64,000 nucleotides of DNA from Clostridia bacterium (GTDB lineage Bacteria; Bacillota; Clostridia; Oscillospirales; CAG-272): the NCBI GenBank assembly GCA_017472695.1, contig JAFUOQ010000015.1, positions 388 through 64,387 of the forward strand. The letters run 5' to 3'. Below are positions 1 to 17,750 of this stretch, piece by piece. Numbering within the stretch: position 1 is the stretch's first letter; every line of letters starts with the position of its first letter. Position numbers and translations under genes: made by a program. Below the pieces are notes generated by a model. That model did not search any database and was not told the DNA's origin. It saw only the letters and a program-made list of their open reading frames with translations.

Positions 1-37
1 AAACGCTATCCAAATTGCGGAAGAATTAATTAAATAA
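1..37 (+). CDS. 3' end of an unidentified CDS entering from upstream (frame 2 reads ...NAIQIAEELIK-stop)
   Basis: Open frame from the window edge to TAA at 35-37, followed by an intrinsic terminator; too short to identify. Confidence 0.3.
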   Translation, partial: NAIQIAEELIK

Positions 38-40
38 TAA

Positions 41-67
41 AAAAGAACAGACGCCTGTTCTTTTTTT
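41..67 (+). terminator. Rho-independent terminator
   Basis: GAACAG(45-50)/CTGTTC(55-60) stem, ACGC loop, A-run before and T7 run after. Confidence 0.7.
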
Positions 68-71
68 AAGC

Positions 72-100
72 AAAAAAAACCACGCAAAATTGCGTGGTTT
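72..100 (-). terminator. Rho-independent terminator of the small minus-strand gene
   Basis: CCACGCA(80-86)/TGCGTGG(91-97) stem with a 4-nt loop; on the minus strand it is followed by a U8 run (A72-79). Confidence 0.75.
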
Positions 101-113
101 AATTTGCCTTTTA

Positions 114-338
114 TTAGTTGTTTGTTGTACCGCTTAAGTTGTTGAAATCGATACCAACAGAAATGTCTTGTGAACCATCTGCATTTGTTTTTGTAGTGGT
201 GTTAGCTGTATCAACAGCGCCGATTGCACCTGAGAACAAAACATTAGCAATACCCAAGCTTGTTTCCATTATATCCATGATGTCTTCTGTTTCAAGCTTT
301 ACCATTTCGCAAATTGGGGAAACGTATTTCATCATCAT
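114..338 (-). CDS. Small hypothetical protein (72-74 aa): acidic leader-like N-terminus, Gly/Ala-rich hydrophobic core, Thr/Asn-rich tail, no signal peptide
   Basis: ORF has an AAGGAG RBS (341-346). Spacing favours the 2nd or 3rd ATG (335 or 332). It has its own consensus promoter and terminator. Confidence 0.6.
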   Translation of the reverse strand: MMMKYVSPICEMVKLETEDIMDIMETSLGIANVLFSGAIGAVDTANTTTKTNADGSQDISVGIDFNNLSGTTNN

Positions 339-379
339 ATCTCCTTAAAAAAGTATATTTATAACTATGAGTTGTATTC

Positions 380-408
380 ATTATATCAAAAGAATATACA
401 TTTGTCAA
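380..408 (-). promoter_or_regulatory. Consensus sigma-A type promoter for the small gene
   Basis: On the minus strand: TTGACA (403-408), 17-nt spacer, TATAAT (380-385). Confidence 0.6.
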
Positions 409-536
409 TACTTATTTAAAATTTTTTTCATTTTTTTAAAAAATTTTAAAGTATAATTTTGACTGTTGTCTTCTGACAGCTTTGTGGACATTTGCGAGGG
501 TAAAATCGGCGGTTTTTCGATTTTACCTCGCTATTA

Positions 537-1607
537 CTATCCTACGATACCGCTTCTTTCAACACCCTCTACAATACGTCTTTGTAGGAATACATATGCA
601 ACAATAAGAGGTAGCGCGATAAGAATTGAGGCTGTACCCAAAACCATTGCACTGTAAGCAGAGGAAATGTTTTGTGTCTCATTTTTAAGCATAGCAGCTA
701 TCGATTCTGGCGTAGCTGCGATATGCTTCATAAATACAAACGCAGAGTTTTCTCTTGCAAGGAATATTGATGTATAGAAATCATCTGTCCATTGCCATGA
801 AAATGCGAATATAAATACGGTAATGAGCATTGGTATTGAAATTGGAATAATTATGCTAAAGAATGTGCGAAGAGTGCTTGAACCATCAACAAATGCAGAC
901 TCCTCAAGCTCATCTGGTACACCCTTAAAGAACTGGCGTAGCATAAATATAAATAATCCATTTTTAAAGCCTAATCCAAATATTGAAAGAACATATAGCG
1001 GAATTAAGCTATCCGAGAAGCCATATCCGTTCTCAAACATACCGAACCAATCCTGAAGTGGCTTCAATATAAAGCTTATTGGATTGAGCGTTGTTTCAAA
1101 CATTGTGATTTGTCTAAAGAATGCATCCATAGAGTTCTTTAATGCTTCCTGTGGAACCATCAAGGTAAGAATAACAAATGCGAACACTATCGAGTTGCCC
1201 TTAAATTTGAACTTTGCAAGTCCATATGCAACTAATGCACAAACTAATGTCTGGATAAGCGCAACACTGAGTGATACTAAAAACGTAGTCAAGAACGCTT
1301 GAATATAATTGTTTTCACTAAGCACGAACCAATATTGATCAATTGTTGGATTCTTTGTTATTAGTATAACTGTAGCATCCTTAACGTCGCTTATTGACAT
1401 TATAGATGATAAAATCTTTTTGATGTACGGATAAAGTATTATGAATGTAATACCTATCAAAAGTACTGTTCTAAAAATTACAAATACTACCTTATATAAG
1501 AAGTTAGCAGATAAAAACTTTTGTTTTAATCTTTCCTTGAGAGGAGCTCTTTCAAAATCAACCTTGATTTTTTTCTTGGATTCTCTTTTTACTTTAACTG
1601 TATCCAT
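537..1607 (-). CDS. Carbohydrate-type ABC transporter permease (MalG-like), second pair
   Basis: Multi-TM protein with EAA loop ...DELEESAFVDGSSTLRTFFSIIIPISIPML... Confidence 0.85.
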   Translation of the reverse strand: MDTVKVKRESKKKIKVDFERAPLKERLKQKFLSANFLYKVVFVIFRTVLLIGITFIILYPYIKKILSSIMSISDVKDATVILITKNPTIDQYWFVLSENNYIQAFLTTFLVSLSVALIQTLVCALVAYGLAKFKFKGNSIVFAFVILTLMVPQEALKNSMDAFFRQITMFETTLNPISFILKPLQDWFGMFENGYGFSDSLIPLYVLSIFGLGFKNGLFIFMLRQFFKGVPDELEESAFVDGSSTLRTFFSIIIPISIPMLITVFIFAFSWQWTDDFYTSIFLARENSAFVFMKHIAATPESIAAMLKNETQNISSAYSAMVLGTASILIALPLIVAYVFLQRRIVEGVERSGIVG

Positions 1608-1619
1608 CTTGGCACCTCC

Positions 1620-2750
1620 TTAGTCTCTTCTTTGGTAGAATACTACCGTCTTCATTAGTAATGCGACAACTACTATAACCACAAGAACTAGAAGTATGTA
1701 TACCCAAATACCTGCACTGAAGTTACCCGGGTTAGCTGATCCAAACAAGCCACCATAACCTCCAAGACCTTGCATTACACGGTTGTCTGCGGCAGTAAAG
1801 AGGTCAACGACTGTATAAATAGCATTTACAAGAATCATTGGGCTTATCATTGGCAATGTAATCTTCCAGAAGGTCTCCCAAGCGGTAGCACCCTCCATTT
1901 GACAGGACTCATAAATCGATGGTGAAATCGATTGCAAGCCTGAAAGGAAAATAAGCATTTGTACACCTGAACGGCTAACAATTTTGAAAATGTTGTTAAT
2001 AAGAGACGTTACGACCTCGACCAGACTAAACTCACCTATCTTCAGATTGACATTGGATAGTAGCATTTCAACGTCAAGTGATGAAATGAGTCCTCCGTCG
2101 CTTGCTCCTGTGTTATCGTCAATAGCTCCGCTTTCTTCCATTGAGCCTGCATCAATTTGAGCATCGATAGCATCTATAATACCTGTTGAAAGAATAACTG
2201 GTAAGAAGAATACTGCACGGAAGAATGTACGTCCTGTCATTTTTTGGTTAAGAATAATCGCCATAAAGAGTGAGAATATTACGATTGCTGGAATCTGCAA
2301 TACTAGGTCACCCATAGCATCTAATACTGTTGTTGTAAAACGTCCATCGTCGAAGAATACTAATTTATAAGCATCAAAGCTGAGATAATCATAATTACCC
2401 TTTGAGCCACGGAATGAAACCTCAATCGATTTAATTACCATAGGTAAATAAATACCTATAATACCAAGAACAAATGGCATACAGAAGAGCCAACCAGAAA
2501 GTGCTTTTTTGCCAGTCAATGACAAGCCTTTTTTCTTGCTTACATATGGTGTGTAAGCTGGTCCTTCCGCTGTTTCTTTTGTTTTTACTTGTTCAGCAAC
2601 TACCGGTGCCTCCTCAAGTGGCTCTTGTGGTTGCTTAGCCACTGGCTTTGTCACCTTTTTAGGAGTTGCTAAATACACCTTTTGCGTGCTTGCGCCCGTG
2701 GTGGAAGAACCTAGTGTAACCTTGTTTTGTGTTTCATTTGCATTTTTCAT
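1620..2750 (-). CDS. Carbohydrate-type ABC transporter permease (MalF-like), second pair, with an ~85-aa low-complexity N-terminal tail
   Basis: EAA loop ...IYESCQMEGATAWETFWKITLPMISPMIL...; 6 predicted TM segments; K/P/E/T-rich N-terminus. Confidence 0.85.
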   Translation of the reverse strand: MKNANETQNKVTLGSSTTGASTQKVYLATPKKVTKPVAKQPQEPLEEAPVVAEQVKTKETAEGPAYTPYVSKKKGLSLTGKKALSGWLFCMPFVLGIIGIYLPMVIKSIEVSFRGSKGNYDYLSFDAYKLVFFDDGRFTTTVLDAMGDLVLQIPAIVIFSLFMAIILNQKMTGRTFFRAVFFLPVILSTGIIDAIDAQIDAGSMEESGAIDDNTGASDGGLISSLDVEMLLSNVNLKIGEFSLVEVVTSLINNIFKIVSRSGVQMLIFLSGLQSISPSIYESCQMEGATAWETFWKITLPMISPMILVNAIYTVVDLFTAADNRVMQGLGGYGGLFGSANPGNFSAGIWVYILLVLVVIVVVALLMKTVVFYQRRD

Positions 2751-5629
2751 TTAACACCAGCCTCCTTTACACTATATTCTTCAAATCCAAGAGCTGGGAC
2801 TACTATTGGTTCGCCCCCAAATTCAACAATTACATCTTGGCTGTTGTAGTTGAGGATAAAGCCCTCTCCACCCTCGTAAACAACGAGAACAACCAAAGAA
2901 TTATTTGTTTTTGTGCCATCAAGATAAGTTACTGCGCAATCTTCATCCTCATCGTTTAGGAATCTATGATCTTCAATATATTTGTCCTGCTTATCCTTCA
3001 TAGCGTTGTTATAAATTGTATAGTTTTCTACTATAGAATTCTTTAAGAAATCATAGCTTACTGAATAATATTTATTGTAATCAGAGTCAAATTTGAGCTC
3101 TTCAACATTTTGCTTTGCCAATGTGTAGTAAAGTGTAGCTCCGTTTTCAATAGCCTTTAAGAGCATATAGTCCTCGTCACCCTCCATATTGAGCGCATTT
3201 CCTGCGAACTCAACAGAGCCGTGGTAAACCATACCATAGAAAGGAACGCTTTCACTTGCTTTTATGTATTTACTACTATCAAGTGGAGCACTAAGTACGC
3301 CTGAAGCATATGGAACTGAATATGCATTTCCTGTGTCAACAATCAAATCAAATCTTTCTTCACCAAGCTTTGTAGCAAGCTTCATAAACTCAACAGTTTC
3401 ATCCTTTGAATCCTCTCTTGAGAAGTAGTTATCTACATCAAAGTCGGAGTTCAAATCAGAGCCGAGTGCTCTTGTTGCAAGTGTTTTTATTTTTGTACCC
3501 TCTATTGAATCAGTAAAGCTTTCAAAGAGTGTAATAAATGATGCGCTTGATACTGCAACACCACTTGTACGCTCAAAGGTTTGAGTTGCGGCATAATATA
3601 CACGCTTTGTTGTATATCTGTCGTCAAGTGTTTTTACTGCGTGCTTGCTATTTGAATAATCGCTAAACCACTTTGTCGCATATGAATATGAAAAATCAAC
3701 ATCAATTGCTACATCGTAATTGTTTTTGTCAGCATCGTCAAGCAAATCAGAAAGACCATCCTTGCCACCGAGAACCTTTTGCCACTTAATCTCTGTTGGA
3801 TAAGTGGAAGCAAGACCACCATTATAGAAGCCCTTCAAAATGAAGGAATTATTGTAAATTCCTGCTTTAGAAAGCTCCTCTTGCATTTCAATTATATCAC
3901 TGAAGGTTGTAAGCTCCTTATCTACAGTTACTGGGAATGAGAACATTTGCTCCTTTACCTTAATAGAACCAAACACCTCAAGGAAGAGCTTTGTATTCTC
4001 TTCAACATCTGTTATCTTTTTAAGTGAGCCGTTTTCAGTCAAATAATCTCTATATAGCTTTGCCATACCGACATAGCTTGTATCATATGTATTTTCAAAG
4101 CCATATTTATCGTCTGTCAAAAGCTTATAATAAATTCTATAATCGCCTTCATAGTAGTTATCTGTAACTACTGTAATTTTAGTAGAGGATGAAGCTCCTC
4201 CTGAAAATGCATCCGCAAGGTCATAGGTATCGTACTCTGCATAGTTAAATGAAGCATATGCAGAAATGTGATATCTTTCAGCGTTTGCAGTAATGGAAGC
4301 GAGTGCATCACCATCCTCAATAATTGCAAAGTATCCTTTATCGTATTCACCACTGGTGTTTACCATTCCGAATACAGGCATTGTATATGGTTCTGTATTT
4401 TTATTTGTGATTTGATAATAAGCATAGTCTGAGCCATATAGCGAGGATGTAAGCTTACCCGTTTGCTTTTTAGCAATCAAATCCTCAAATCTAACAATTG
4501 TTCCACTTCCATCAGGAATAAAGATGTAACCATTGTCGTATTGCTTATTTCCATTCTCATCTAGGTCGGAATCCAATGCGGCTGATGCAAAATAAGGAAG
4601 AATTGTAATATTTGCAAGACAGTAAAGTGATTTATCATACTCTACAGTGCTTGCGTCAAGATTAACTATAAGACCATCGTTTGCAAGCTTATAGTCAACT
4701 GTAAACTTGAAGTTAGGATATTCCTTTTCTACATAGTTTTCTCTGTCTTTTGCTTCGTCCCATAGCTCTTCGCTGTCTATCTCGAATTGAGTCTTTTCTC
4801 CTATTGGCTTTCCGTCTTCATCTTTTTCAGAAAGAACAAAGTATTCTGGATTAGCTGCAATCAATTTTGCTTCCAAAACCTCCATACTATAGCTTGATGC
4901 ATATATACCAGGCTTTAGGAAAATGAAAGGAGTTTCAAGACAAATTGGATGTTCATTTATCATTTCTTGACGAAGTGTCAAGCTAGGATTGCTCAAAAGC
5001 TTATTTTCAATATACACTTGGTCAGGGTCGTAGATGTTAAAGTTTTCCTTTACAAGCTTCTCTATCTGTGTGCTGGATTGTCCGCCCTCGCTCATTGCTT
5101 TATAGAAATCTTCAAGAGCAATCTTTAGAGGTACTGCGTAATCACGTCTTTCCTCACCGATAGAATAATCAACCCTTATTCCTTCACTTGTTTTGCTAAT
5201 CTTACCTTGGTTGTACGCAAAGCAATCATTATAGCTATACAATGTTGACATTGCATCCTTACCAGATGTGATTTTAAAGTAATTAACGTATACCTGTGAC
5301 AAACGATAGCCTTTATCTGCTGTATTTGTTGCAGGGAAAACGTCAGATACGTTATATGGGTTTGAGAGTGTTATTTCTCCTGTTACCTTGTTTTTAATTG
5401 CCATTTCACCCGATTTGTTGTCAACGTAGAGCTGGAGAATACCATCGCCCTCGCCCTCCTTATCGGGATCATCACTAGTCATAATATATGTCATTGTTGC
5501 TAGCTTTTCTTCGGCATTTGCAAAGGTGTCAGACATATGGTCAACGGTTGATGCTCCAACCGCCATAGGAACAAGTAATGCACCCACTAATAATACGGCA
5601 AGAAGAGCCGCTAATATTCTATTTTTCAT
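2747..5629 (-). CDS. Large secreted protein of unknown function (960 aa)
   Basis: Type I signal peptide MKNRILAALLAVLLVGALLVPMAVGA/S with no further TM segments. 4-nt overlap with the downstream permease. From memory it may correspond to the DUF5696 family (unverified). Confidence 0.75.
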   Translation of the reverse strand: MKNRILAALLAVLLVGALLVPMAVGASTVDHMSDTFANAEEKLATMTYIMTSDDPDKEGEGDGILQLYVDNKSGEMAIKNKVTGEITLSNPYNVSDVFPATNTADKGYRLSQVYVNYFKITSGKDAMSTLYSYNDCFAYNQGKISKTSEGIRVDYSIGEERRDYAVPLKIALEDFYKAMSEGGQSSTQIEKLVKENFNIYDPDQVYIENKLLSNPSLTLRQEMINEHPICLETPFIFLKPGIYASSYSMEVLEAKLIAANPEYFVLSEKDEDGKPIGEKTQFEIDSEELWDEAKDRENYVEKEYPNFKFTVDYKLANDGLIVNLDASTVEYDKSLYCLANITILPYFASAALDSDLDENGNKQYDNGYIFIPDGSGTIVRFEDLIAKKQTGKLTSSLYGSDYAYYQITNKNTEPYTMPVFGMVNTSGEYDKGYFAIIEDGDALASITANAERYHISAYASFNYAEYDTYDLADAFSGGASSSTKITVVTDNYYEGDYRIYYKLLTDDKYGFENTYDTSYVGMAKLYRDYLTENGSLKKITDVEENTKLFLEVFGSIKVKEQMFSFPVTVDKELTTFSDIIEMQEELSKAGIYNNSFILKGFYNGGLASTYPTEIKWQKVLGGKDGLSDLLDDADKNNYDVAIDVDFSYSYATKWFSDYSNSKHAVKTLDDRYTTKRVYYAATQTFERTSGVAVSSASFITLFESFTDSIEGTKIKTLATRALGSDLNSDFDVDNYFSREDSKDETVEFMKLATKLGEERFDLIVDTGNAYSVPYASGVLSAPLDSSKYIKASESVPFYGMVYHGSVEFAGNALNMEGDEDYMLLKAIENGATLYYTLAKQNVEELKFDSDYNKYYSVSYDFLKNSIVENYTIYNNAMKDKQDKYIEDHRFLNDEDEDCAVTYLDGTKTNNSLVVLVVYEGGEGFILNYNSQDVIVEFGGEPIVVPALGFEEYSVKEAGVK

Positions 5630-5640
5630 ATTTGGCCCTC

Positions 5641-7920
5641 CTACCTGTAGCTTAACTCACTCGTAATAGTTGATACAAATGAGGTCATCTTTGAAATAAG
5701 TGTAATAAATAGTACAACAATAAACATGATAATAACCATACCTGCTATTGTAGCTACTACTGTTACTATGTTTTTACCCATTGAATAATCGTGTGTAACC
5801 TGCATACCGATGATGATAAGGAATGCCATCCAAATGTATGCAACGGAAATGATAAGTGTAGGAATTTGTGATTCTGTTCCTACCAATACCTGTGTTAAAA
5901 GTGTAGATACTATCACAAGAATTGGAAGTGGGAATAATGCATATGCTGTTGCAATAAAGATATCCTTAAAGCTTCCCTCTCCATCGAAAAGTGTTGTGAA
6001 GCACCAGTTTGAAATTACCCAAAGGAAGAATGGAATGAGAACTGTTGCCGCTTGTGAAATTACTGTTGCGGTAGAGCCCTGTGGCTTGTAATAGTAGCCT
6101 TGACCTATACCCTGATAGTAGAAGGCAACTACTGTTATAATAAGGAAGATAATTGCTGCTCTCATTGAGCCACGCTTTTCCTTTTTCAAATCCCAATATC
6201 CATCAAATGGATGGAATATGATATGGAAGCCGTAGGTTAACTCCTCCTTGAGTGAGCGCTTGCCACCCTTGGTAGCCGCAGCCTTATTAACCTTACCTGC
6301 GTATCCGAACACCTTAACAACTACAAAGAGCAATACTATAATTCCAATAACCAGGAATATGAAGTATCTTTCCATAATATCTGCACGGATAGCCTTAAAT
6401 ACTGTTGCATAGTTCTCTGTATCGTATGCATTTTCAAAGTACGCAAGAGCTGTATCAAGATCGTCCCTGTCCTTTGCATTACGATAAATTGCCTTACCCA
6501 TTTCAACATACGCGGTGTCGAAGTTGTTATTTCTTGCTAATACATCCTCCCACGCACCTGTCGCTTTGTCAAATTCGCCATCGTTCTGATATCCAATAGC
6601 GGTTGCCAAAACCTGGGCATATTCTGTTTGTCTATATACTATTAATGAAGCGTTTGAACGGTCAAGAACTATAATCTTTGTTGTTTCCTTATCGACAACT
6701 GCTCCGGTTTTTTCATCCATAGCCTTTTGATTATAAATCTGATATGTAATTGCCTGACCAGCGCCATTATCTGCTTTGGTGACTTGACCAAATTGCTCAC
6801 CAACATCACCAAAGATGTATAGTAGGTTACCCAAACGGTCGTAGGTATAAATCTTCGCACGCTTGTTGTCAAGGATTGACCAAACGCCATCAGGACCACT
6901 TGTTACGTCGATTATCTTTGATACACCGCTTGGTGCTCCCTCATTTGCTGCGGTAACCTTTGCGTTAAGCTCAACCGCTACCTCGCCAGCTGGAGCAAAG
7001 AAGCCTGTACGTTGCATAATGTCTGTACCACCCGCGTTAAGAAGCTTAACTGGAGAGTAGTCTGTAACCTTGGATGTAAGCTGTGTCAACTGTGAGTTCT
7101 CATCATCAGCGTTGTACATAATAGTACCATAAACAAAGTCGCCATAGGTTCTATCAAGCTCAAGGTTTGAATAAGTTGTTGGCACGTTTGTAAACTCAAG
7201 TGTTGTCCATGGGTTTACAGTTTGAATAATTGCTTGAAGCGCTGAAACACTAACCTTTGGCGCACCAATAAAGTTAATAAATTCGCCTTCGTTTGTGAGA
7301 ACTATGATACCCTCTGTTGTTCCATCGGATACAACGTACATTCTACCATGCTTATCTACTACACAGCTGATAGGAGTGTATGCACCGGTATCTGATGAGA
7401 AGTTGATTTGAGGCTCCTTAAAGGTTTTCTCAAATACATATGCACCTTCTCCATAAACTTCTTCATTTATTGTGAATTTAATAATTCTCTTATTAAGCTT
7501 ATCACAAACATAAAGTCCTTTGTAATTGCCTTCACTTACTGTAAATGTGCTTGTAGGTGTATTAAAGGTATCCTCTACTCCATCACCATTTACAAAGTTT
7601 TGAATTACAGCTTTGAAATTGTAATTTGAGTCAACTACTACAATTCTGTTGTTGTTTGAGTCAGTAATATAAACATTACCGAAATCGTCTGCTTCTACGT
7701 CTGTTGGGTTATCCATTGCAACTCCGCCAAGATTATCTAGACCGATAGTTGCAGAGTTTACTGGCGCAACTCCGTCAGGCACGTATGCATCAGGAGATTT
7801 AAGAACCTCTCCATTAATTGAATATGTATATGTGTCATAAGGAGTAGCAGCCATTGCGCAAGGAGCAAGAAGCATTATAAAAGCAAACATGAATGCAGCT
7901 ATTTTTGCTATTTTCTTCAT
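5641..7920 (-). CDS. Fusion protein: signal peptide, NHL-like beta-propeller, helical/TPR-like region, TM anchor, C-terminal Yip1-type 5-TM domain (759 aa)
   Basis: NHL-like blades (DDFGNVYITDSNNNRIVVVD, GLYVCDKLNKRIIKF, DKHGRMYVVSDG, DGVWSILDNKRAKIYTYD). C-terminal HPFDGYWDLKKEKRGS followed by a hydrophobic multi-TM region typical of Yip1/DUF1282-like proteins. Confidence 0.7.
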   Translation of the reverse strand: MKKIAKIAAFMFAFIMLLAPCAMAATPYDTYTYSINGEVLKSPDAYVPDGVAPVNSATIGLDNLGGVAMDNPTDVEADDFGNVYITDSNNNRIVVVDSNYNFKAVIQNFVNGDGVEDTFNTPTSTFTVSEGNYKGLYVCDKLNKRIIKFTINEEVYGEGAYVFEKTFKEPQINFSSDTGAYTPISCVVDKHGRMYVVSDGTTEGIIVLTNEGEFINFIGAPKVSVSALQAIIQTVNPWTTLEFTNVPTTYSNLELDRTYGDFVYGTIMYNADDENSQLTQLTSKVTDYSPVKLLNAGGTDIMQRTGFFAPAGEVAVELNAKVTAANEGAPSGVSKIIDVTSGPDGVWSILDNKRAKIYTYDRLGNLLYIFGDVGEQFGQVTKADNGAGQAITYQIYNQKAMDEKTGAVVDKETTKIIVLDRSNASLIVYRQTEYAQVLATAIGYQNDGEFDKATGAWEDVLARNNNFDTAYVEMGKAIYRNAKDRDDLDTALAYFENAYDTENYATVFKAIRADIMERYFIFLVIGIIVLLFVVVKVFGYAGKVNKAAATKGGKRSLKEELTYGFHIIFHPFDGYWDLKKEKRGSMRAAIIFLIITVVAFYYQGIGQGYYYKPQGSTATVISQAATVLIPFFLWVISNWCFTTLFDGEGSFKDIFIATAYALFPLPILVIVSTLLTQVLVGTESQIPTLIISVAYIWMAFLIIIGMQVTHDYSMGKNIVTVVATIAGMVIIMFIVVLFITLISKMTSFVSTITSELSYR

Positions 7921-7928
7921 AATACCTC

Positions 7929-8801
7929 CTAATCCTTCATACCACTAGATGCCATTGTTTCAATAATGTTACTTTGTGAAATAACAAATACCAAAATTGG
8001 CACAAGCATCATAATTACCGAACCAGCAGCGGACGCACCTGCACGGGCGATACCACCAGCAGTAATTTGTCCAATTGCATAGTTGAGTGTCTTTAGCTGT
8101 TCACTATAAATGTAAGCCGAAGCACCTGTGTTCCAAAGTCCTTGGAACGAATAAATAATAAGTGTTAACCAAGCAGGCTTAACCATTGGCATAGCAATTA
8201 CCCAGAAGGTTCTAAACTCGCTACAGCCATCAAGACGCGCACTCTCAAGCACGGAATCTGAAATTGAGGAGTCCATAAACTGCTTCATTAGGTAAAGTCC
8301 CATAGATGACCCCCATGCAGGTATAATAAGTGCAAATGGGTTATCCATAAGTCCGAGTGTTGATAGTGTTAGGAAGTTCGCTATTGCTGTTACAGTTGAT
8401 GTAAACATAAGTGAACGTTGAATAATCCAGAACACGCCACGTCTGCCGGGGAAAGGAATTTTAGAAACTGCATAAGCTGCAAGTGAGCTAAATAGCAAGT
8501 TTCCAAAGGTACCTGCGGCTGTAATAAATACTGTGTTAAATATGTATCTTGAGAAAGGTACCCAAGAATCACTTAAAAGTGTAAATAAATCGGAAAAGTT
8601 CTTTAATGTTGGGTTTACAACATAGAATCTTGGAGGGAACATCCAAAGCTCGTCAAGAGGCTTCAACGATTGCATTACAACATATACCATTGGCAAGAAC
8701 ATAAATGCTCCCATAATAGCAAGGAAGATAAATATTCCTGCGTCTCCACCTTTAGAACGGTTGAGGACAACTTGATGATTTCTAACTCTCATTTTTTGCA
8801 T
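7929..8801 (-). CDS. Carbohydrate-type ABC transporter permease (MalG-like), first pair
   Basis: EAA loop ...VLESARLDGCSEFRTFWVIAMPMVKPAW.... Start moved to the ATG at 8801 (MQKMRV...), preceded by AAGGTGGG; the longer ORF to 8849 overlaps the upstream gene. Confidence 0.85.
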   Translation of the reverse strand: MQKMRVRNHQVVLNRSKGGDAGIFIFLAIMGAFMFLPMVYVVMQSLKPLDELWMFPPRFYVVNPTLKNFSDLFTLLSDSWVPFSRYIFNTVFITAAGTFGNLLFSSLAAYAVSKIPFPGRRGVFWIIQRSLMFTSTVTAIANFLTLSTLGLMDNPFALIIPAWGSSMGLYLMKQFMDSSISDSVLESARLDGCSEFRTFWVIAMPMVKPAWLTLIIYSFQGLWNTGASAYIYSEQLKTLNYAIGQITAGGIARAGASAAGSVIMMLVPILVFVISQSNIIETMASSGMKD

Positions 8802-8802
8802 A

Positions 8803-9840
8803 TCATTGTCCCACCTTCGAAAGCATTTTATTAACCAGAACGTTTGCACCCATCATTACAAGGAAGAGTACGAACGCAATAGCGGAAGCATATCCCACTT
8901 CCCAACGTTGGTTACCGTAGTCCTCCAAGCAGTGCATAATCGTATGACACGAATAGTTAACTGATGGGAATCCACAAAGCGAGGTTACGACACCACCGAA
9001 GCCGAACGCACCAGTAATTGACATTACCGCACCGAACATTAGCTGTGGTCGCATCATTGGCAGGGTAATAAACCATAGCTCCTGCCATCTGTTTTTGATA
9101 CCGTCAACTGCGGCTGCCTCAAACAAGCTCTTATCAACCGTTTGAAGACCTGCAATAAACGATAGGAACGCTGTACCGAGTGACATCCATAGTGCAACTA
9201 CGATACAAAGTGTCATTGCGTATTTCTCGTCATAGAACCAAAGAATTGGCGCATCTATGATGTTGAGCTTCATTAGCGTACCATTAACCCAGCCCTGTCC
9301 GTCATTTGAGAAAAGTGTACCCCAAATGAGATATACTGAGCCAGAAATTGATGGTGCATAGAATATAAGTGTTACTATTGCTCTGATTCTTGGTGATAGC
9401 TCATTAATGAACCATGCAACAAGGAATGAAAGAATATAGGAAACAGGACCTGTAATTGCAGCGAACACGAGTGTGTTTTTACAAGCGAGGAGGAATATAT
9501 CGTCCTCAAAGAATAGTCTTGTATAGTTTTTAATTCCTATAAACATATCCCATTTGAATTCGAGCATATTGAAGTTTGTAAAGCTGAGTACTAGCGATAG
9601 TACAACTGGGAATACAGTAAATAGCAAGAATACAAACATGAATGGTGCTATCATTAGGTACGCAATTTTGTGCCTCTTGATCTCATGCAATGTCCATTGG
9701 AACATTGTCATATCCTTTCTTGCAACTGCCTTCTTTTTATCATTTGATTTTTGTTCTTCTAAAATACTATCGTCATGTACAGCTTCGGCTGTTTCGATAT
9801 TTTCAGCCTTGTTTTGTAAATTTTCTTTACGCTTTGCCAT
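8803..9840 (-). CDS. Carbohydrate-type ABC transporter permease (MalF-like), first pair, with a ~55-aa charged N-terminal tail
   Basis: EAA loop ...LFEAAAVDGIKNRWQELWFITLPMMRPQL...; 6 TM segments. Confidence 0.85.
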   Translation of the reverse strand: MAKRKENLQNKAENIETAEAVHDDSILEEQKSNDKKKAVARKDMTMFQWTLHEIKRHKIAYLMIAPFMFVFLLFTVFPVVLSLVLSFTNFNMLEFKWDMFIGIKNYTRLFFEDDIFLLACKNTLVFAAITGPVSYILSFLVAWFINELSPRIRAIVTLIFYAPSISGSVYLIWGTLFSNDGQGWVNGTLMKLNIIDAPILWFYDEKYAMTLCIVVALWMSLGTAFLSFIAGLQTVDKSLFEAAAVDGIKNRWQELWFITLPMMRPQLMFGAVMSITGAFGFGGVVTSLCGFPSVNYSCHTIMHCLEDYGNQRWEVGYASAIAFVLFLVMMGANVLVNKMLSKVGQ

Positions 9841-9870
9841 CTACATTTTCTCCTTCTTTAGTATTTTAGA

Positions 9871-12800
9871 TTAATTTAAAGCATTATCGGGATTTAGCTT
9901 ATCATACTCTTCTTTTGTGAGCATGCCAAATTCCTCACGTCTTCTCTCAATTTCGGCATTGATTGTTGTAACGTAGCTGAGAAGCGCATCTGATGCGTCC
10001 TCGCCATCGTTATAAGCTGCTAGGAATGCGAAGTTGACATAACGAGCTAAATAGTAGCTACCTGGGTGGTTTGGAACTGCCTCAAGGTTGTTGAACTGGT
10101 CAAGGATGTTTGATTTTTCCTTTGCTGTCCAAGGAAGCTCCTCAAGAGCAATTCTATTTGCGGTTGCAGGTCTTGCTGCAATACCCATGATAGAAACTAC
10201 ACCATTTGAATAGTCTGCTTGGAACTCATGTCCTGTGTACCATTTCATAAATTCCCATGCAGCATCGTCTTTTTTCTGTTGCTCTTTGCTGTTGCCATTA
10301 TCTATCATTACACAGCCTGTAACTGTACCAATAGCATTTCTGTTAATTTGAACATTTCCATTTTCGTCAAGTATTTCATTTCCATTTTCATCAACAACTA
10401 CCTCACCAGGAAGCTTAACAAATGTCCAAAGACCTGAAAGCTCTGATGCGAATACTGCCAATTGGTTACATGTTGTATATGGTGCAATACCGATTGGCAT
10501 TTCGCCTGTACGGAAACGGTTTGCAAAATCATATGTATAAGGAAGTGAATATTGAGTGTAGTAGTTACACATTGTTTCAAATGCGTTAAGAACGCCCTTT
10601 GAATCAAAGTTGATTGTCATACCATTGTTGGAATATGCCTCATGACCATTTTGGTATATAAATGTATATGCATCATTTTGGATACCTAGCTCCATATTAT
10701 TATATTGAAGAATAGGTAGTATTGCGAGCATATCATCCCATGTCTTTGGAACCTCAAGCTCTAGGTTAGCAAATATATCCTCACGGTAGAACATCATTGA
10801 GAATGTAAGTGTGTCTGGTAAAGCATAAAGCTCAATACCAGTATGTCCCTCGTCATTCTTCCAGTTATAGCCATATTTTGCATCATCCAAGCTACTGTTA
10901 GGATTATTTTCGTCTACGAGATAGTGTACCTCTTTAGATGTGCCGTTTGATGTATTAGTTATTGTTGTACCATCCTCTCTCCACAGATAGAGGTCCTCCT
11001 CAACCCATGTATATTCATGGTCAACGCCTTCAATATCTAAAACATTTTCATATCCAAAGTTATAGAGAGTAAGTGGCTCAATAGCAGCCTCTGGGAACTC
11101 GTCTAATATGTTTGTACCATTTTTAATATCCTCGTTAACATATTCGTTGAGAGGTTTTATTGCGTTACGGAGAGCATAGTCAATAATAGTTGTGCTTACC
11201 TCCATTAGCGAAACCTCTGGACCTACGCCAGCAATAATTGATGGAAGTAGTGTTCCTCCCGAAATGAGCTTAATGTTAACTCCGATGTTGATCTTTTCGT
11301 ACTTTGTGGGTTTTCCATTTTCATCCCACTCTACAGCGACCTCGTATTCCTCTGGAGTAAAATTATTTTCAATGAGATTTCTTATGATTTGTGCTTGGTC
11401 ACGACCTGTTACAACCCAAACCTCAATTACTTCGTCGTAATTGCCACCATCTGACTTGCTATCCATTGTATTGTAATCGCCTGCAAATGAAGCGAAGAAC
11501 AGCTTGATTTCAAACCAGATTGCTTCAAAGAAGTTTGCGTCTGCCTTTGGTAGATCATCATCTATTGATTGAACTAGATAATAGTCAACCTGTAGGGGCT
11601 GTGTCTTTGCGCTATTAATCCAGGTACCCAAGGAACCGATTTGTGATTTTAATGTTGCGAGATTTGCAGGAATTTCGGACTCGTCAGTTGCCATCTTTTC
11701 AAGAAGCTGGTAAACCTGCTTAATGGTTGCTGTCTTTTCACCCTCACCAGTACCGCCGTCCTGTGCTTGGTTCTCTGCTATCATATAATTATAAACGCTC
11801 TCAAGGTTTTGTGACTCCAAAAGCATGCTTTCAAGAACGTGTGGCATTACACGTGTGAAGCCATATGAACGGTTAGAGTCAGGGTCTGTACCTGTGAGCT
11901 TTAGAATTTCAAGGTAAGCTTCGTTTATTGCAGTAAGTGAGTTGCTTACCTGTTTAATTTGCTGACCCATTTCGCCAAGAGTTGCCTCAAGCTTTATTTC
12001 ATAGGTTTTGCCTGCTTCAAAATAAAACTCGAACTCTGTTTCGCCATCTCCAAGGAAGCAAGTTTGCCAAGAGCTTGTATATGGGAAACGGCAGTTTGCA
12101 GCCTCTGCAAACGGAACCTCTCCATCAATATATAGCTTTCTTGAAACGTACATACCACTCAATAGAGCTTGCTTATATCTAACAGCTATGGAATAGTAAC
12201 CAGATTCTGGTACTGTAATTTCATAGCTCATCCACTCACCAACGTTTTGCCACTGCTCTTTTCCTGCTGTGTTATACTTAACCGCAGACTCACTTTGTGC
12301 GCCTGTCAATCCACTTGTAATCGCGGAGGTTCTATCGTATACAGGATACATAGTAACAGCGGATACGTTTTCTGGGCCCTCTGCCTCTATTCTATCATCC
12401 TCGTCCAAATCAAGACTTACTCTGTTGTCCTCCATCTTTCCGTAGAGGTCTTCCATTTCCTTCTTGTATTGGCTATAGCTCATCAAGCTTTCTTGTGGGC
12501 GCAAGGTAATAGATTGAATAATGATGCCTTCTCTTTGACCCTCAAGTGAAATTGCATTTTCACCTGGCTTTACATAGAATTCAAATGGATACATTTCATA
12601 TCCGTTTGAATCACTGATAGCATATGTAACCCAGCTTTGGTCCTCCTTAACAGAAGGACGGATGTCGTCACCGCTACCATCTTCCTTTTCGTTCTCAAAG
12701 GTTCGGTTGTTATCATTATCATACTTATAATCGTATTTCCACACCTTTGAAAGCACTAATGAACGTGCTTCGGAAAACGGAATCTCACCGTTTAAGTAAA

Positions 12801-13611
12801 ATATACGTTCGATTGGGTTACTAGTAGGCTTGCTATCACCATCGAGAACATCGTCCTCCATTGCTTGAGCATACTTAATTTCAATTATGTAATTTCCACT
12901 CAAGTATTCAGGAACGTTGAAGGTCCAAGTAACAACACCATTAGAGCCGATGTAAACACCTGCATTGTTACCATCGTCATCCTCTGTGCAAACATTTTGC
13001 TTTACACGACCTGCGTCCTCACCAAGGATAACTACCTTGTTATCAAACTCGTATTCACCATCAAGAAGGCTAAATTGATTATCCTTGCCTGCTTGAGGAT
13101 TCATAACAAGCTCAATTGTTTCAACAAGAGTATAGGTTGTGTCAACTACCTTTTCCCCTATTGTAATTTTGGCTGTTTTTCCTTTAGAGTCTATTACAAG
13201 CTCGATATCCTCAAGATCCTTTGCTGAGCCTGTATAAGTGCCTGCAAGAGAAACATATGTGCTTTGTGAAAAGTTGTTTTTCTTCTGCTTTGCAAGGCTA
13301 TACTCTGTACCGTTATAATCTAAAACGGCAGCCTCTCCACCTGAAACAGTAATTGTACCAACCACTGCTCCTTCGTTGGAGTAGAGCGTCATCTTTCCAG
13401 CCGATGCGTGCTTATCCAAAACGTTTTCCTTGTATTCGTCATAAGACAAGGCGTTAAGAATAGCGCTTACGTCGGAAATTGACGAATTGGAAGACGAGCT
13501 TCCACTTGAGCTACTCACTTTACCGGATGCAAATGCAGACAAGCCCATAGTCGGCACGAGCATCAAAAGGCAAAGTAAAAATGCAAGTAGCTTTTTCGCT
13601 TTCTTTCTCAT
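9871..13611 (-). CDS. Giant (1246 aa) extracellular solute-binding protein fusion: signal peptide, Ser-rich linker, ~700-aa N-terminal extension with two related CBM6/35-like modules, C-terminal family-1 SBP domain
   Basis: Signal peptide ...LSAFA/SG has no lipobox Cys. The internal repeat is visible (YIIEIKYAQ...RIFYLNGEIPFSEA vs YYSIAVRYKQ...RKLYIDGEVPFAEA). The C-terminal ~550 aa has a typical sugar-SBP pattern (...PKTWDDMLAILP...). Confidence 0.8.
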   Translation of the reverse strand: MRKKAKKLLAFLLCLLMLVPTMGLSAFASGKVSSSSGSSSSNSSISDVSAILNALSYDEYKENVLDKHASAGKMTLYSNEGAVVGTITVSGGEAAVLDYNGTEYSLAKQKKNNFSQSTYVSLAGTYTGSAKDLEDIELVIDSKGKTAKITIGEKVVDTTYTLVETIELVMNPQAGKDNQFSLLDGEYEFDNKVVILGEDAGRVKQNVCTEDDDGNNAGVYIGSNGVVTWTFNVPEYLSGNYIIEIKYAQAMEDDVLDGDSKPTSNPIERIFYLNGEIPFSEARSLVLSKVWKYDYKYDNDNNRTFENEKEDGSGDDIRPSVKEDQSWVTYAISDSNGYEMYPFEFYVKPGENAISLEGQREGIIIQSITLRPQESLMSYSQYKKEMEDLYGKMEDNRVSLDLDEDDRIEAEGPENVSAVTMYPVYDRTSAITSGLTGAQSESAVKYNTAGKEQWQNVGEWMSYEITVPESGYYSIAVRYKQALLSGMYVSRKLYIDGEVPFAEAANCRFPYTSSWQTCFLGDGETEFEFYFEAGKTYEIKLEATLGEMGQQIKQVSNSLTAINEAYLEILKLTGTDPDSNRSYGFTRVMPHVLESMLLESQNLESVYNYMIAENQAQDGGTGEGEKTATIKQVYQLLEKMATDESEIPANLATLKSQIGSLGTWINSAKTQPLQVDYYLVQSIDDDLPKADANFFEAIWFEIKLFFASFAGDYNTMDSKSDGGNYDEVIEVWVVTGRDQAQIIRNLIENNFTPEEYEVAVEWDENGKPTKYEKINIGVNIKLISGGTLLPSIIAGVGPEVSLMEVSTTIIDYALRNAIKPLNEYVNEDIKNGTNILDEFPEAAIEPLTLYNFGYENVLDIEGVDHEYTWVEEDLYLWREDGTTITNTSNGTSKEVHYLVDENNPNSSLDDAKYGYNWKNDEGHTGIELYALPDTLTFSMMFYREDIFANLELEVPKTWDDMLAILPILQYNNMELGIQNDAYTFIYQNGHEAYSNNGMTINFDSKGVLNAFETMCNYYTQYSLPYTYDFANRFRTGEMPIGIAPYTTCNQLAVFASELSGLWTFVKLPGEVVVDENGNEILDENGNVQINRNAIGTVTGCVMIDNGNSKEQQKKDDAAWEFMKWYTGHEFQADYSNGVVSIMGIAARPATANRIALEELPWTAKEKSNILDQFNNLEAVPNHPGSYYLARYVNFAFLAAYNDGEDASDALLSYVTTINAEIERRREEFGMLTKEEYDKLNPDNALN

Positions 13612-13680
13612 AAGAAATCCTCCATGTTTTTTGCTGTTCTAATCACTTGCTTGGTTTAGCGCTCACCAAACAAATGCAAG

Positions 13681-13698
13681 ATATACGTGTGCGTATAT
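13681..13698. promoter_or_regulatory. Inverted repeat ATATACG-TGTG-CGTATAT in the 5' UTR of the ABC operon (candidate operator)
   Basis: Perfect 7-bp arms just downstream of the predicted -10 element. Confidence 0.35.
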
Positions 13699-13711
13699 AT
13701 TAGTATGTATA

Positions 13712-13740
13712 ATTTTAGCATACAAGTAAAATAAAGTCAA
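13712..13740 (-). promoter_or_regulatory. Sigma-A type promoter of the seven-gene ABC operon
   Basis: On the minus strand: TTGACT (13735-13740), 17 nt, TAAAAT (13712-13717). Confidence 0.5.
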
Positions 13741-13928
13741 GTTGCCATTTTTAACAATTTGCACAAGGTATCTCTTTGCCAAGCCATTTTCTCAAAATAA
13801 AGGAATTAAATTCTCCCCAAAAAAGCGTTAGAACCTTTTAAAAATTTTTAAGCTAAAAATGCTTATAAAGTCAACAATCAAGGCAACACTATACTAAAAA
13901 TAATATATTTTCTAAAATTTTCTACGTA

Positions 13929-13954
13929 TTGTGCAACTTGCACAAAAATTTGTG
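13929..13954. promoter_or_regulatory. Two overlapping perfect palindromes, TTGTGCAA-C-TTGCACAA and CACAAA-AA-TTTGTG (candidate regulator binding site)
   Basis: Read directly. A further TTGCACAA half-site lies at 13759-13766, next to the -35 of the operon promoter. Confidence 0.35.
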
Positions 13955-14030
13955 GATATTTTTGGCGTGTGCGCATTTTTCACAAAATTGCTAAAATTAT
14001 TTATTTTTTTGCCAAATTATTCAAAAAATC

Positions 14031-14059
14031 TTGACATGCCAGAGAATTAATATTATAAT
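14031..14059 (+). promoter_or_regulatory. Consensus sigma-A type promoter for glcK
   Basis: TTGACA (14031-14036), 17 nt, TATAAT (14054-14059). Confidence 0.6.
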
Positions 14060-14132
14060 TTGAAGTAGCCGATTTGTTATTACTTGACACCATCAAGCCT
14101 TTCGGTGAAAACAAGCAAAGGATGGTAGTATT

Positions 14133-15092
14133 ATGTACTATTTAGGAATCGACCTCGGTGGAACAAACATTGCCGCCGGTATCGTCGACGAAAACTACAA
14201 AATAATTAAGAAAAAGAGTGTACCTACTCTTGCACATAGAGATGGCAAAGAAATCATTAAGGATATGGCAAAGCTTTGTCTTTCACTTCTTGAGGATTGC
14301 GGACTTACCATTAACGATATCGAATACGCTGGAATTGCTTCCCCTGGTACTGCAAATTCAGAAACAGGCATCGTTGAATACGCAAACAATCTTCCTTTTA
14401 AAAACTTCCCTATTGCAGAGCTGCTTAAGGAATATACCGGCGTAAAGAAGGTTCTTATCGAAAACGATGCAAACGCTGCTGCAAAGGCTGAGGCTATTGC
14501 CGGTGTTGCGAAGGGTGCTAAATTTTCCGTTATGATTACACTTGGAACAGGTTTAGGCGGTGGAATTGTTCTTGACGGAAAGGTATATTCAGGCTTTAAC
14601 TTCGCAGGAGCCGAGCTTGGACACATTGTTATTGAAAAGGACGGCAAGCAATGTACCTGTGGCAGACGCGGCTGTTGGGAAACATATAGCTCCGCTACCG
14701 GTCTTACAAATATGACAAAGGAGCATGTTCTCAAGGCTAGAGCCGAGGGACGCAAAACCCTCATTGAGGAGCTTATCAACGGCAATGTTGATAATTGCAA
14801 CGCAAGAGTTGCATTCACCGCTATGAAGCAGGGCGATGCAGTTGGTAAGGAAATTGTTGACGAATATATTTCTTACCTCGCATGTGGAATTGCAAACATA
14901 ATCAATATATTCCAACCAAACGTTCTTTCGATCGGTGGTGGAGTATGCAATGAAAAGGACAATCTTCTCGTTCCACTAAATGAAGCTGTATTTAAGCAAA
15001 CCTACACAAAGGGTGACAAGCAAACCCAAATCAAGATTGCAGAGCTTGGCAACGACGCTGGTATCGTTGGAGCTGCAGTTCTTGGACTTTAA
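14133..15092 (+). CDS. glcK: ROK-family glucokinase
   Basis: N-terminal YLGIDLGGTNIAAG ATP-binding motif; ROK zinc signature CTCGRRGCWETYSS. Confidence 0.85.
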   Translation: MYYLGIDLGGTNIAAGIVDENYKIIKKKSVPTLAHRDGKEIIKDMAKLCLSLLEDCGLTINDIEYAGIASPGTANSETGIVEYANNLPFKNFPIAELLKEYTGVKKVLIENDANAAAKAEAIAGVAKGAKFSVMITLGTGLGGGIVLDGKVYSGFNFAGAELGHIVIEKDGKQCTCGRRGCWETYSSATGLTNMTKEHVLKARAEGRKTLIEELINGNVDNCNARVAFTAMKQGDAVGKEIVDEYISYLACGIANIINIFQPNVLSIGGGVCNEKDNLLVPLNEAVFKQTYTKGDKQTQIKIAELGNDAGIVGAAVLGL

Positions 15093-15105
15093 TCGTCTTT
15101 CACAA

Positions 15106-15138
15106 CCCGCAGAGCATTTTCCTCTGCGGGTATTTGTT
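15106..15138 (+). terminator. Intrinsic terminator or attenuator between glcK and recG
   Basis: CCCGCAGAG(15106-15114)/CTCTGCGGG(15122-15130) stem, followed by a T-rich tract. Confidence 0.55.
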
Positions 15139-15167
15139 AGTCAAAATCAGCTGAAAGGAGGAACAAA

Positions 15168-17303: not shown

Positions 17304-17304
17304 T

Positions 17305-17362
17305 GAAAAATCACTAGCTAAGTGAACTAAATTGGGTTCACTTCATAAGCTGGTGGTTTTTC
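17305..17362 (+). terminator. recG terminator with an embedded GTGAAC-N8-GTTCAC palindromic element
   Basis: Outer stem CACTAGCT(17312-19)/AGCTGGTG(17348-55), inner stem GTGAAC(17322-27)/GTTCAC(17336-41), T-run after. Confidence 0.5.
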
Positions 17363-17745: not shown

Positions 17746-17750
17746 ACAAT

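Follow-up and report, generated by a model that had tools for sequence, protein, structure and literature searches.

A conserved seven-gene operon of gut Clostridia encodes a candidate new glycoside hydrolase, a giant binding protein and two distinct importer-type permease pairs

A 64,000-nucleotide stretch of DNA from a Clostridia bacterium (GTDB lineage CAG-272; assembly GCA_017472695.1, contig JAFUOQ010000015.1, positions 388 to 64,387; hereafter the window) carries on its minus strand, at 537-13611, a block of seven tightly packed genes transcribed from G1 to G7. The genes encode an exported binding protein (G1), a first pair of permeases of the ATP-binding cassette (ABC) type (G2 and G3), a membrane protein that joins an NHL propeller to a Yip1 domain (G4), an exported protein of the DUF5696 family (G5), and a second permease pair (G6 and G7). 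We conclude, at a probability only somewhat above even (roughly 0.55), that the operon is a core system for the capture, cleavage and import of glycan, which combines a Yip1-NHL scaffold with two distinct translocators and an enzyme of a candidate new glycoside hydrolase (GH) family.

In the mechanism that we propose, carbohydrate-binding modules (CBMs) of G1 would hold a polymeric glycan at the cell surface, and G5 would cleave the glycan held there. The solute-binding protein (SBP) domain of G1 would then pass oligosaccharides to one or both of the translocators, which may take different products or size classes, and a shared MsmK/MsmX-type ATPase encoded elsewhere would power both pairs. 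G4 might act as a membrane scaffold that retains G1 and G5 and organises the two translocators, by analogy with YknW of Bacillus.

Seven genes inherited as one block

The seven window proteins were used to map 80 loci by tblastn, and six further loci were added, four of them picked via distant G5 proteins and two via G7 homologues on contigs new to the sample. G1 to G7 occurred in the same order and orientation in every sufficiently long locus of the 80, at G5 identities of 33-70%, and the same seven-gene block was present in 6/6 of the further loci. Not one of the 86 loci examined overall carried a half-block. A first-pass annotation of the window, made by a model from the letters and their translations, had described seven co-directional, packed genes and suggested that their synteny be tabulated; the scan for open reading frames (ORFs) recovered all seven where they had been placed, and the synteny extends to the other loci as just described. 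Where gene calls exist, the intergenic gaps of the orthologous blocks are mostly a few to about 25 nt. At 70% identity of G5, G3, the most conserved gene of the block, is 98% and G2 95% identical, and across loci G2 identity ranges from 54 to 95%. At the greatest distances sampled, the first permease pair (G2/G3) retains ~54-69% identity, the second (G6/G7) ~41-45%, and G1, G4 and G5 ~33-40%.

Relatives of G5 were found in at least 558 species in a GTDB scan that used one genome per species. Almost all of the hosts are metagenome-assembled genomes recovered from anaerobic digesters or from the guts of goat, sheep, deer, yak, chicken, rabbit, mouse and human. When 1.84 billion representative proteins were searched exhaustively by profile, 5,396 clusters of DUF5696 relatives at 50% identity were obtained with E<=1e-3, 3,221 of which had E<=1e-30.

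The flanking ORFs of the 80 loci were clustered, and the recurrent clusters were scanned against Pfam. All recurrent flanks were housekeeping genes: a divergent ROK kinase (26 loci), recG (17 loci), cysteine desulfurase, NifU, aspartate kinase, aspartate-semialdehyde dehydrogenase, homoserine dehydrogenase, threonine synthase, RNase H and carbamoyl-phosphate synthase. SecA, ScpA/B and ribonucleotide reductase lay near the block in individually inspected loci. Genes for ABC ATPases, transcriptional regulators or cytoplasmic glycosidases did not recur in the flanks of the 86 loci, nor did any DNA-binding or two-component gene recur beside the block, which extends to the other loci the earlier remark that the window operon has no regulator. 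Because only housekeeping genes recur in the flanks, without an ATPase, a regulator or a cytoplasmic glycosidase, the block behaves like a vertically inherited module of the core genome, unlike a catabolic island that is mobile or varies between strains. Its position among housekeeping genes and the lack of a regulator together suggest a core, largely constitutive nutrient system of uncultured gut Clostridia.

G5 is predicted to be an enzyme of an undescribed family

G5 matched the Pfam family DUF5696 (PF18952) over model positions 8-602 of 612 (E 3.5e-127; 425.9 bits against a cut-off of 25.6). An AlphaFold2 (AF2) model computed from a 40-sequence alignment had a mean predicted local distance difference test score (pLDDT) of 87.2 and a predicted template-modelling score (pTM) of 0.84. 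Its predicted architecture, an N-terminal beta-sandwich followed by a (beta/alpha)8 barrel and a C-terminal beta-sandwich, is that of GH129 and GH101. When the model was compared with the PDB by Foldseek, GH129 ranked first: ZgGH129 (5opq) matched with E 7.4e-27 and a TM-score of 0.69, and NagBb (5wzr) with a TM-score of 0.72, both normalised to the target. GH101 followed at ~1e-14, and GH36, GH31 and GH97 ranked lower. The catalytic domains of GH129 and GH101 themselves resemble each other (PMC8106489).

At the level of sequence, no GH family in Pfam or NCBIfam matched G5, phmmer retrieved nothing from the PDB, and the best PDB match of the 40-sequence profile was NagBb with a non-significant E of 0.14, two barrel segments being aligned. 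NCBIfam holds no model for either G5 or G1. The first-pass annotation had recognised no glycoside hydrolase in the operon; this holds for Pfam names but not for folds, given the GH129/GH101-like model of G5.

The 40 orthologues used for column counts diverge to 34% identity. D729, E551, D669 and E828 were present in 40/40, D725 was D in 39 and E in one, and D784 was D in 36 and E in four; R738, N768, H803 and N814 are among the invariant polar residues of the barrel. In the model, the invariant acidic residues sit a few residues past predicted barrel strands, with D725 and D729 past predicted strand 4 and D784 past predicted strand 6. Strand 4 is the site of the nucleophile in GH129, GH101, GH13 and clan GH-D, and strand 6 that of the acid/base in clan GH-D. 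Because D765, which corresponds by its spacing to the acid/base position of GH129 and GH101, varies among the orthologues (31 D, 5 N, 2 E, 1 G and 1 S of 40), we infer the catalytic pair from secondary structure, not from superposition, and propose that it consists of D725 or D729, with D784.

The variable D765 would also be expected if G5 were a non-catalytic protein that kept a GH129-like fold for glycan binding or scaffolding, so that the locus imported pre-existing oligosaccharides without depolymerising anything. The lack of a significant sequence match to any GH family, and the DUF name under which Pfam still lists the protein, would agree with such a role. We nevertheless regard it as quite unlikely, because six acidic and several polar residues of the barrel are invariant or limited to D/E in 40 sequences reaching down to 34% identity, a pattern typical of active sites. 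Judging from its model, G5 is very probably an active enzyme that processes carbohydrates and belongs to an undescribed family, with a putative catalytic pair as above, and DUF5696 is a candidate new glycoside hydrolase family.

Many DUF5696 relatives reach 1.3-2.5 thousand amino acids through long C-terminal extensions (proteins P0273-P0369; locus L053, 8794-13155). Extensions of 900-1500 residues in these long relatives had no Pfam match and therefore yield no hint of the substrate; perhaps they are binding or anchoring modules of an uncharacterised kind. Our literature search found no paper on DUF5696 or PF18952.

G1 combines CBM-like domains with a family-1 solute-binding domain

G1 consists, in order, of a signal peptide, a Ser-rich linker, a beta-rich N-terminal module, two CBM-like beta-sandwiches, a helical bundle and a family-1 SBP domain. 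The N-terminal module is present in the closer relatives only. The Pfam matches to SBP_bac_8 (E 2.5e-14) and SBP_bac_1 (E 1.2e-12), which place the domain in family 1 (cluster B-like), are restricted to residues 897-1136. A variable insertion lies at ~855-928, where the tblastn alignments break in most loci.

Residues 48-730 were modelled by AF2 with 40 orthologues at a pLDDT of 86.7. A CBM35/CBM6-like character of the second beta-sandwich was indicated by sequence and by structure. The window protein itself matched CBM_6 (E 7.7e-4; 20.2 bits against 28.9) and CBM_35 (E 4.8e-3) of Pfam below threshold, several orthologues carry a precomputed PF16990 CBM_35 assignment, and the orthologue profile matched the CBM35 region (residues 403-519) of the Paenibacillus CITase (5x7g) with E 3.3e-8. 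Foldseek aligned the model with the CBM35 of CsxA (2vzr) at a TM-score of 0.68 and a root-mean-square deviation of 3.3 over 142 columns, as expected of a beta-sandwich fold, and also with CBM6E and the CBM35 of CITase (20-21% identity); a multi-CBM alpha-1,6-glucosyltransferase of Paenibacillus (5x7o) was matched with E 8e-9. No family matched the helical bundle.

The best solved relative of the SBP domain by orthologue profile was Lin1841 (E 2.6e-12), a binder of beta-1,2-glucooligosaccharides in Listeria. Together with the CBM35 that is nearest to the alpha-1,6-glucan enzyme CITase and the glucokinase-like ROK neighbour, this gives a weak indication that the substrate is a glucan.

Two permease pairs and one binding protein

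G2, G3, G6 and G7 all matched BPD_transp_1 of Pfam, and each has an intact EAA loop; the four loop strings quoted in the first-pass annotation occur verbatim in the translations. The two EAA-loop permeases of a CUT1 importer are thus encoded twice over. In NCBIfam the permeases were nearest to UgpA/UgpE, MalF/MalG and PotB, with every score far under the equivalog cut-offs (G2: PotB 2.1e-17, UgpA 1.5e-16, MalF 4.8e-11; G3: UgpE 3.2e-18; G7: UgpE 2.6e-16). G2 and G6 share 33% identity over 58 residues only and G3 and G7 share 22%, and a recent duplication of the first pair to give the second was rejected on these low values. As judged by sequence, G2/G3 and G6/G7 are anciently diverged heterodimers of the CUT1 type.

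G6 has an N-terminal cytoplasmic extension of ~85 aa. The length of this extension is highly variable and its sequence is of low complexity; the counterpart of G6 in locus L085 (8249-9988) has 579 aa and an Extensin_1-type Pfam match. The first MalF-like permease also varies in length, from 345 aa in the window to 372 aa in L085 and 418 aa in L086.

The EAA loop is the motif that docks the ABC ATPase, and since all four permeases retain the EAA glycine, both pairs should dock ATPase subunits. The LSGGQ signature was absent from every frame of the 64-kb window, and the only three Walker A motifs of the window lie in non-ABC genes such as recG, so that the earlier statement that the operon encodes no ATPase stands. 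The absence of the gene is not odd in itself, because CUT1 systems of Firmicutes commonly share an MsmK/MsmX ATPase. As the first-pass annotation had pointed out for the window, there are two complete pairs for one binding protein, and this departure from one heterodimer per SBP was seen in all loci.

Two independent importers might simply lie side by side, with G1-G3 forming a complete system, G6/G7 obtaining an SBP from elsewhere, and G4 and G5 being unrelated accessories. The pairs are only distantly related, they have evolved at unequal rates (~54-69% against ~41-45% identity at the largest distances), and a canonical importer needs only one pair. However, the gene order is kept with short gaps and no locus has one half alone. 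Loci retrieved via G7 always carry G1-G5, and clustering of the flanking ORFs of the 80 loci gave no second SBP gene. We therefore consider two separate importers very unlikely.

Anchoring of the exported proteins and the role of G4

In both G1 and G5 the only hydrophobic segment is N-terminal, and an AxA-type site follows it. The exported proteins of the window have neither a lipobox nor an LPXTG motif, and G1 and G5 also lack a C-terminal transmembrane segment. The missing lipobox, to which the first-pass annotation had drawn attention, is a property of the family as a whole: a lipobox-like pattern was found in 6/266 DUF5696 proteins and 1/120 SBP orthologues, unlike the lipid-anchored SBPs of Gram-positive bacteria, and a C-terminal sortase motif or transmembrane segment in 0/266 and 0/120. 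G1 and G5 may be held either by uncleaved signal sequences that serve as anchors or by protein-protein contacts. Because neither protein has a lipid or wall anchor, G4 may be the retaining scaffold, and it is the obvious candidate for contacts with both. The Yip1 protein YknW of Bacillus reportedly modulates the assembly of the YknXYZ ABC transporter (PMC4887032), and the role suggested for G4 is modelled on it.

G4, which was detected by tblastn in every locus, consists of a signal peptide that looks cleavable, an NHL beta-propeller, TPR-like helices, and one transmembrane segment ahead of a five-segment Yip1 domain. The Yip1 match (PF04893) covered the full-length model at residues 566-735 with E 6.9e-18 and 65.5 bits against a cut-off of 28.6. 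Of the six C-terminal hydrophobic segments, the last five (residues 588-739) make up Yip1. One propeller blade (residues 68-106) matched NHL in Pfam (1.5e-5) and, by sequence in the PDB, the designed Pizza propellers and the sensor propeller of PknD; residues 408-504 gave weak TPR-like matches. In the distant locus L083 (6231-8426), the gene calls assign a 548-aa NHL propeller and a 161-aa Yip1 domain to two adjacent genes. This call is consistent with two modules of G4 that work together.

The match to the extracellular sensor propeller of PknD raises a further alternative, namely that the operon is a sensing or signalling device, or another membrane process on an importer chassis, in which an external glycan would be detected by the NHL propeller and the CBM-bearing SBP, and the permeases would relay this signal instead of carrying nutrient in bulk. 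That no catabolic enzymes are linked, and that Yip1 proteins are factors of assembly and organisation rather than transporters, would suit this explanation. It appears highly improbable, however, since in none of the loci is the block linked to a kinase, a response regulator, a sigma/anti-sigma pair or a DNA-binding gene, the four intact EAA loops suggest ATP-driven transport, and an enzyme-like G5 would be superfluous for sensing.

Operon structure, promoter and neighbouring genes

The positions of the genes, the domains and the regulatory features are collected in Table 1. The gaps between successive genes, from G1 to G7, are 30, 1, 8, 11, -4 (an overlap) and 12 nt, and all of these spaces are too short to hold another promoter. 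The ORF scan listed G3 as 7929-8849 (306 aa). Its real start is most likely the ATG at 8801, because the orthologues have 290 aa and start 1-2 nt past the stop of the preceding gene.

The first-pass annotation had placed a single promoter ahead of G1, and the consensus scan found it there, with a 10/12 match and an extended -10 region. Consensus matches in the region were about as frequent as expected by chance (47 found against 43.3 +/- 6.4 expected). We accept this site as the operon promoter because the -35 box and the extended -10 are invariant when the window is aligned with five orthologous loci (L001-L005), in which the surrounding sequence diverges.

The 5' leader was predicted to fold into two hairpins at -20.5 kcal/mol (z -2.1). 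The loop of hairpin 2 is invariant, and compensatory changes in its stem were seen in L002 and L005. A covariance model of the leader recovered only the five training loci and one marginal match (L010), and RNAalifold gave no meaningful consensus on a broader MAFFT alignment of leaders. The hairpins were therefore dropped as a general cis-regulator, being restricted to the closest relatives. A palindrome directly past the -10 recurs, with differing sequences, in 13 loci and might serve as an operator or to stabilise the 5' end. A cre-like CcpA site picked out by eye in the leader matches at ~9/14 positions and is unconvincing, and Rfam gave nothing credible in window positions 1-18000. At the other end of the operon, the inverted repeat directly past the stop of G7 is a possible end of the transcript; it has no T-run and was not flagged by the terminator scan.

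Directly downstream of G7 there is a 73-aa ORF (MMKYVSPICEMVKLETEDIMDIM...; 117-335, minus strand) with its own perfect 12/12 sigma-70 promoter (408-380) and a strong terminator (100-77). Homologues (consensus MKYVSPxxE..LE.EDIM...DG..SV) lie at the same position in L001-L005, L008, L010, L085 and L086, and neither Pfam nor NCBIfam has a family for them. The ORF was rejected as an eighth member of the operon, as it is kept in the closer clade only and is absent from more distant loci. In L085 (11768-14905) and L086 (11477-14779) the small ORF is followed by a protein of ~1,050-1,100 aa with LRR_5 repeats, which the window does not have.

Table 1. Positions in the window of the operon genes, their predicted domains and the adjoining features
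Feature	Position	Strand	Size or residues	Description and basis
G1	9871-13611	(-)	1246 aa	exported binding protein; ORF scan and Pfam
G1 beta-sandwich 1	12499-12960	(-)	residues ~218-371	CBM-like; AF2 strand pattern, Foldseek matches to multi-CBM enzymes
G1 beta-sandwich 2	11980-12276	(-)	residues ~446-544	CBM35/CBM6-like; sub-threshold Pfam, orthologue profile, Foldseek
G1 long helical bundle	11482-11970	(-)	residues ~548-710	AF2, high pLDDT
G1 solute-binding domain	9874-11439	(-)	residues ~725-1246	Pfam SBP_bac_8
G2	8803-9840	(-)	345 aa	MalF/UgpA-like permease 1; EAA loop EAAAVDGIKNRWQELWFITLPMMRP
G3	7929-8801	(-)	290 aa	MalG/UgpE-like permease 1; EAA loop ESARLDGCSEFRTFWVIAMPMVKP
G4	5641-7920	(-)	759 aa	NHL-propeller/Yip1 membrane protein
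G4 NHL-type propeller	6631-7833	(-)	residues ~30-430	predicted extracellular; blade match, extent inferred
G4 membrane domain including Yip1	5686-6363	(-)	residues ~520-745	Pfam and hydropathy
G5	2747-5629	(-)	960 aa	exported DUF5696 protein
G5 (beta/alpha)8 barrel	3050-3997	(-)	residues ~545-860	predicted; AF2 secondary structure
G6	1620-2750	(-)	376 aa	MalF-like permease 2; EAA loop ESCQMEGATAWETFWKITLPMISP
G7	537-1607	(-)	356 aa	MalG-like permease 2; EAA loop ESAFVDGSSTLRTFFSIIIPISIP
Operon promoter	13712-13740	(-)		TTGACT, 17 nt, TAAAAT, TG ahead of -10; consensus scan and five-locus alignment
5' leader	13644-13698	(-)		two predicted hairpins, hairpin 2 loop GCGCUA; RNA folding
GC-rich inverted repeat	494-531	(-)		directly past G7 stop; read from sequence
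ROK-family sugar kinase	14133-15092	(+), divergent		glucokinase-like; Pfam ROK 2.7e-60

The ROK kinase upstream scored 239.8 bits against the ROK glucokinase model TIGR00744, just under the cut-off of 260.35. The first-pass annotation had read this gene as a hint of glucose-containing cargo; the gene is a conserved divergent neighbour, but as functional evidence the hint is weak.

The same neighbourhood bears on the possibility that the operon turns over, remodels or recycles a surface glycopolymer of the cell itself, with G5 trimming wall or capsular polysaccharide and G1 and the importers constitutively recovering the fragments. Housekeeping genes surround the block in all of the lineages that were sampled (recG, the ROK kinase, the aspartate pathway, SecA, cysteine desulfurase/NifU, ScpA/B and a PBP5-type carboxypeptidase). 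Its gene order is invariant and vertically inherited, it has no regulator, and its promoter is conserved and matches the consensus well; ROK kinases, moreover, comprise amino-sugar kinases besides glucokinases. On the other hand, the flank clustering of the 80 loci showed no glycosyltransferase, flippase or wall-synthesis gene consistently linked to the block, it is in foraging systems that CBM35 and family-1 SBPs typically occur, and the best NCBIfam match of the ROK neighbour is a glucokinase, not an amino-sugar kinase. We consider recycling of a self-made glycopolymer unlikely, with some small chance of being correct.

Elsewhere in the window, 13 kb from the operon, a 573-aa protein (26462-28183, minus strand) had weak Pfam matches to Melibiase, GH31 and GHL10 (E 1.5e-12 to 2.4e-5) and no NCBIfam model; by its sequence it is a second poorly classified GH-like gene of the window. 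A phosphofructokinase-family gene (19769-21001, minus strand) is directly followed by a co-directional gene (18272-19756) for a DUF1846 protein (E 3e-183), which is conserved but uncharacterised and here stands in a glycolytic context.

Discussion

Several points weigh against the operon being a glycan capture, cleavage and import system. No cognate MalK/MsmK-type ATPase was found in the operon, the 64-kb window or the flanks of the 86 loci. Nor is the operon linked to a cytoplasmic enzyme that would act on the imported product, as a catabolic locus usually is. We know of no characterised precedent for one binding protein that serves two translocators. CBM35 domains and family-1 SBPs bind many different sugars, which weakens the hints of a glucan. 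With regard to G5, the acid/base position suggested by spacing varies, the best profile match to a GH is not significant, and the proposed catalytic pair was derived from secondary structure. The role suggested for G4 draws on the analogy with YknW and on the missing anchors of G1 and G5.

A bolder version of the same idea is that the seven proteins form one obligate surface complex, a Gram-positive counterpart of the utilisomes of Bacteroidota. In it the Yip1-NHL scaffold would physically couple an anchor-less glycosidase of a new family and a CBM-bearing SBP to the two different translocators, which would share this one SBP, and uncultured gut Clostridia of a large clade would acquire carbohydrate by it as their core route. 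We put this forward tentatively and regard it as possible but doubtful.

The first-pass annotation had proposed a capture-and-import machine for a large or polymeric substrate. The CBM-bearing G1 and the indivisible, conserved seven-gene unit speak for this part of the proposal, but its premise that no hydrolase is encoded fails at the level of the fold. The annotation had added that hits to well-characterised enzyme families would turn the locus into an ordinary polysaccharide utilisation locus (PUL). Because G5 models as a GH129/GH101-type enzyme, the locus does look more PUL-like than before; yet the best GH match in sequence is the E of 0.14 reported above, no regulator, ATPase or intracellular enzyme accompanies the block in the 86 loci, and its flanks are housekeeping genes. 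The annotation's remark that similar neighbourhoods are annotated as DUF5696, YIP1 and ABC permeases with no assigned function proved correct. In agreement with this, our literature search gave no relevant paper on the combination of Yip1, ABC transporter, SBP and GH, and the operon is undescribed in the publications found.

DUF5696 is a large and ecologically coherent family, with at least 3,200 clusters when grouped at 50% identity and members in at least 558 species, almost only uncultured Clostridia of guts and digesters, and it is unstudied in the literature that we found. The GH129/GH101-like fold makes G5 a concrete candidate for a new GH family with defined residues to mutate, and the invariant seven-gene context provides testable partners for a bacterial Yip1 protein. 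To the study of ABC importers the operon poses the question of how one SBP serves two unrelated translocators. Given its place in the core genome, the block may serve a substrate of central ecological importance to these bacteria in ruminant, bird, rodent and human guts.

Among known systems, the CUT1 importers that borrow an ATPase are the closest in design (MalEFGK2 as the model; the MsmX/MsmK-dependent systems; Lin1841-1843 of Listeria innocua), as they share with the operon a MalF/MalG-like EAA heterodimer, a family-1 SBP and the absence of an ATPase gene. The operon differs from them in having two unrelated pairs for one SBP, and in the SBP itself, a non-lipoprotein of 1246 aa that is extended by CBMs and a helical bundle. 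Between the pairs lie genes for a Yip1-NHL membrane protein and for a large, exported protein that resembles an enzyme, and all of these genes are conserved as a unit; to our knowledge the Yip1-NHL subunit has no counterpart in described importers.

G5 resembles the enzymes of GH129 (the alpha-N-acetylgalactosaminidase NagBb of Bifidobacterium bifidum and the 3,6-anhydro-D-galactosidase ZgGH129 of Zobellia) and the endo-alpha-N-acetylgalactosaminidases of GH101 in its predicted three-domain fold and in short barrel segments that align weakly at the profile level. In contrast, its identity to them is ~10-13% with no significant sequence match, and the acid/base position is not conserved. G5 also has ~300 extra N-terminal residues, and many of its relatives have 300-1500 extra C-terminal ones.

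Gram-positive PULs (gpPULs) are commonly defined by a carbohydrate-active enzyme (CAZyme), a transporter and a regulator. Like the gpPULs of gut Firmicutes, the operon unites genes for CBMs, for an ABC importer and for an extracellular protein that resembles a CAZyme; unlike them, it has no regulator, cytoplasmic GH or phosphorylase. Whereas gpPULs are variable and strain-specific, the operon forms part of a core housekeeping synteny and stays invariant over hundreds of species at least.

YknWXYZ of Bacillus likewise encodes a Yip1-family protein together with an ABC transporter. YknYZ is, however, a MacB-type exporter with a membrane fusion protein, whereas the permeases described here are of the importer type (BPD_transp_1), and YknW is small and has no NHL propeller, unlike G4. 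The Sus-like utilisomes of Bacteroidota, in which SusCD is joined by surface glycan-binding proteins and glycosidases, share no homology with the operon, and they are TonB-dependent outer-membrane systems with lipoprotein components. The two may nevertheless be alike in that enzyme, SBP and transporter would act on a polymeric glycan as a single surface assembly.

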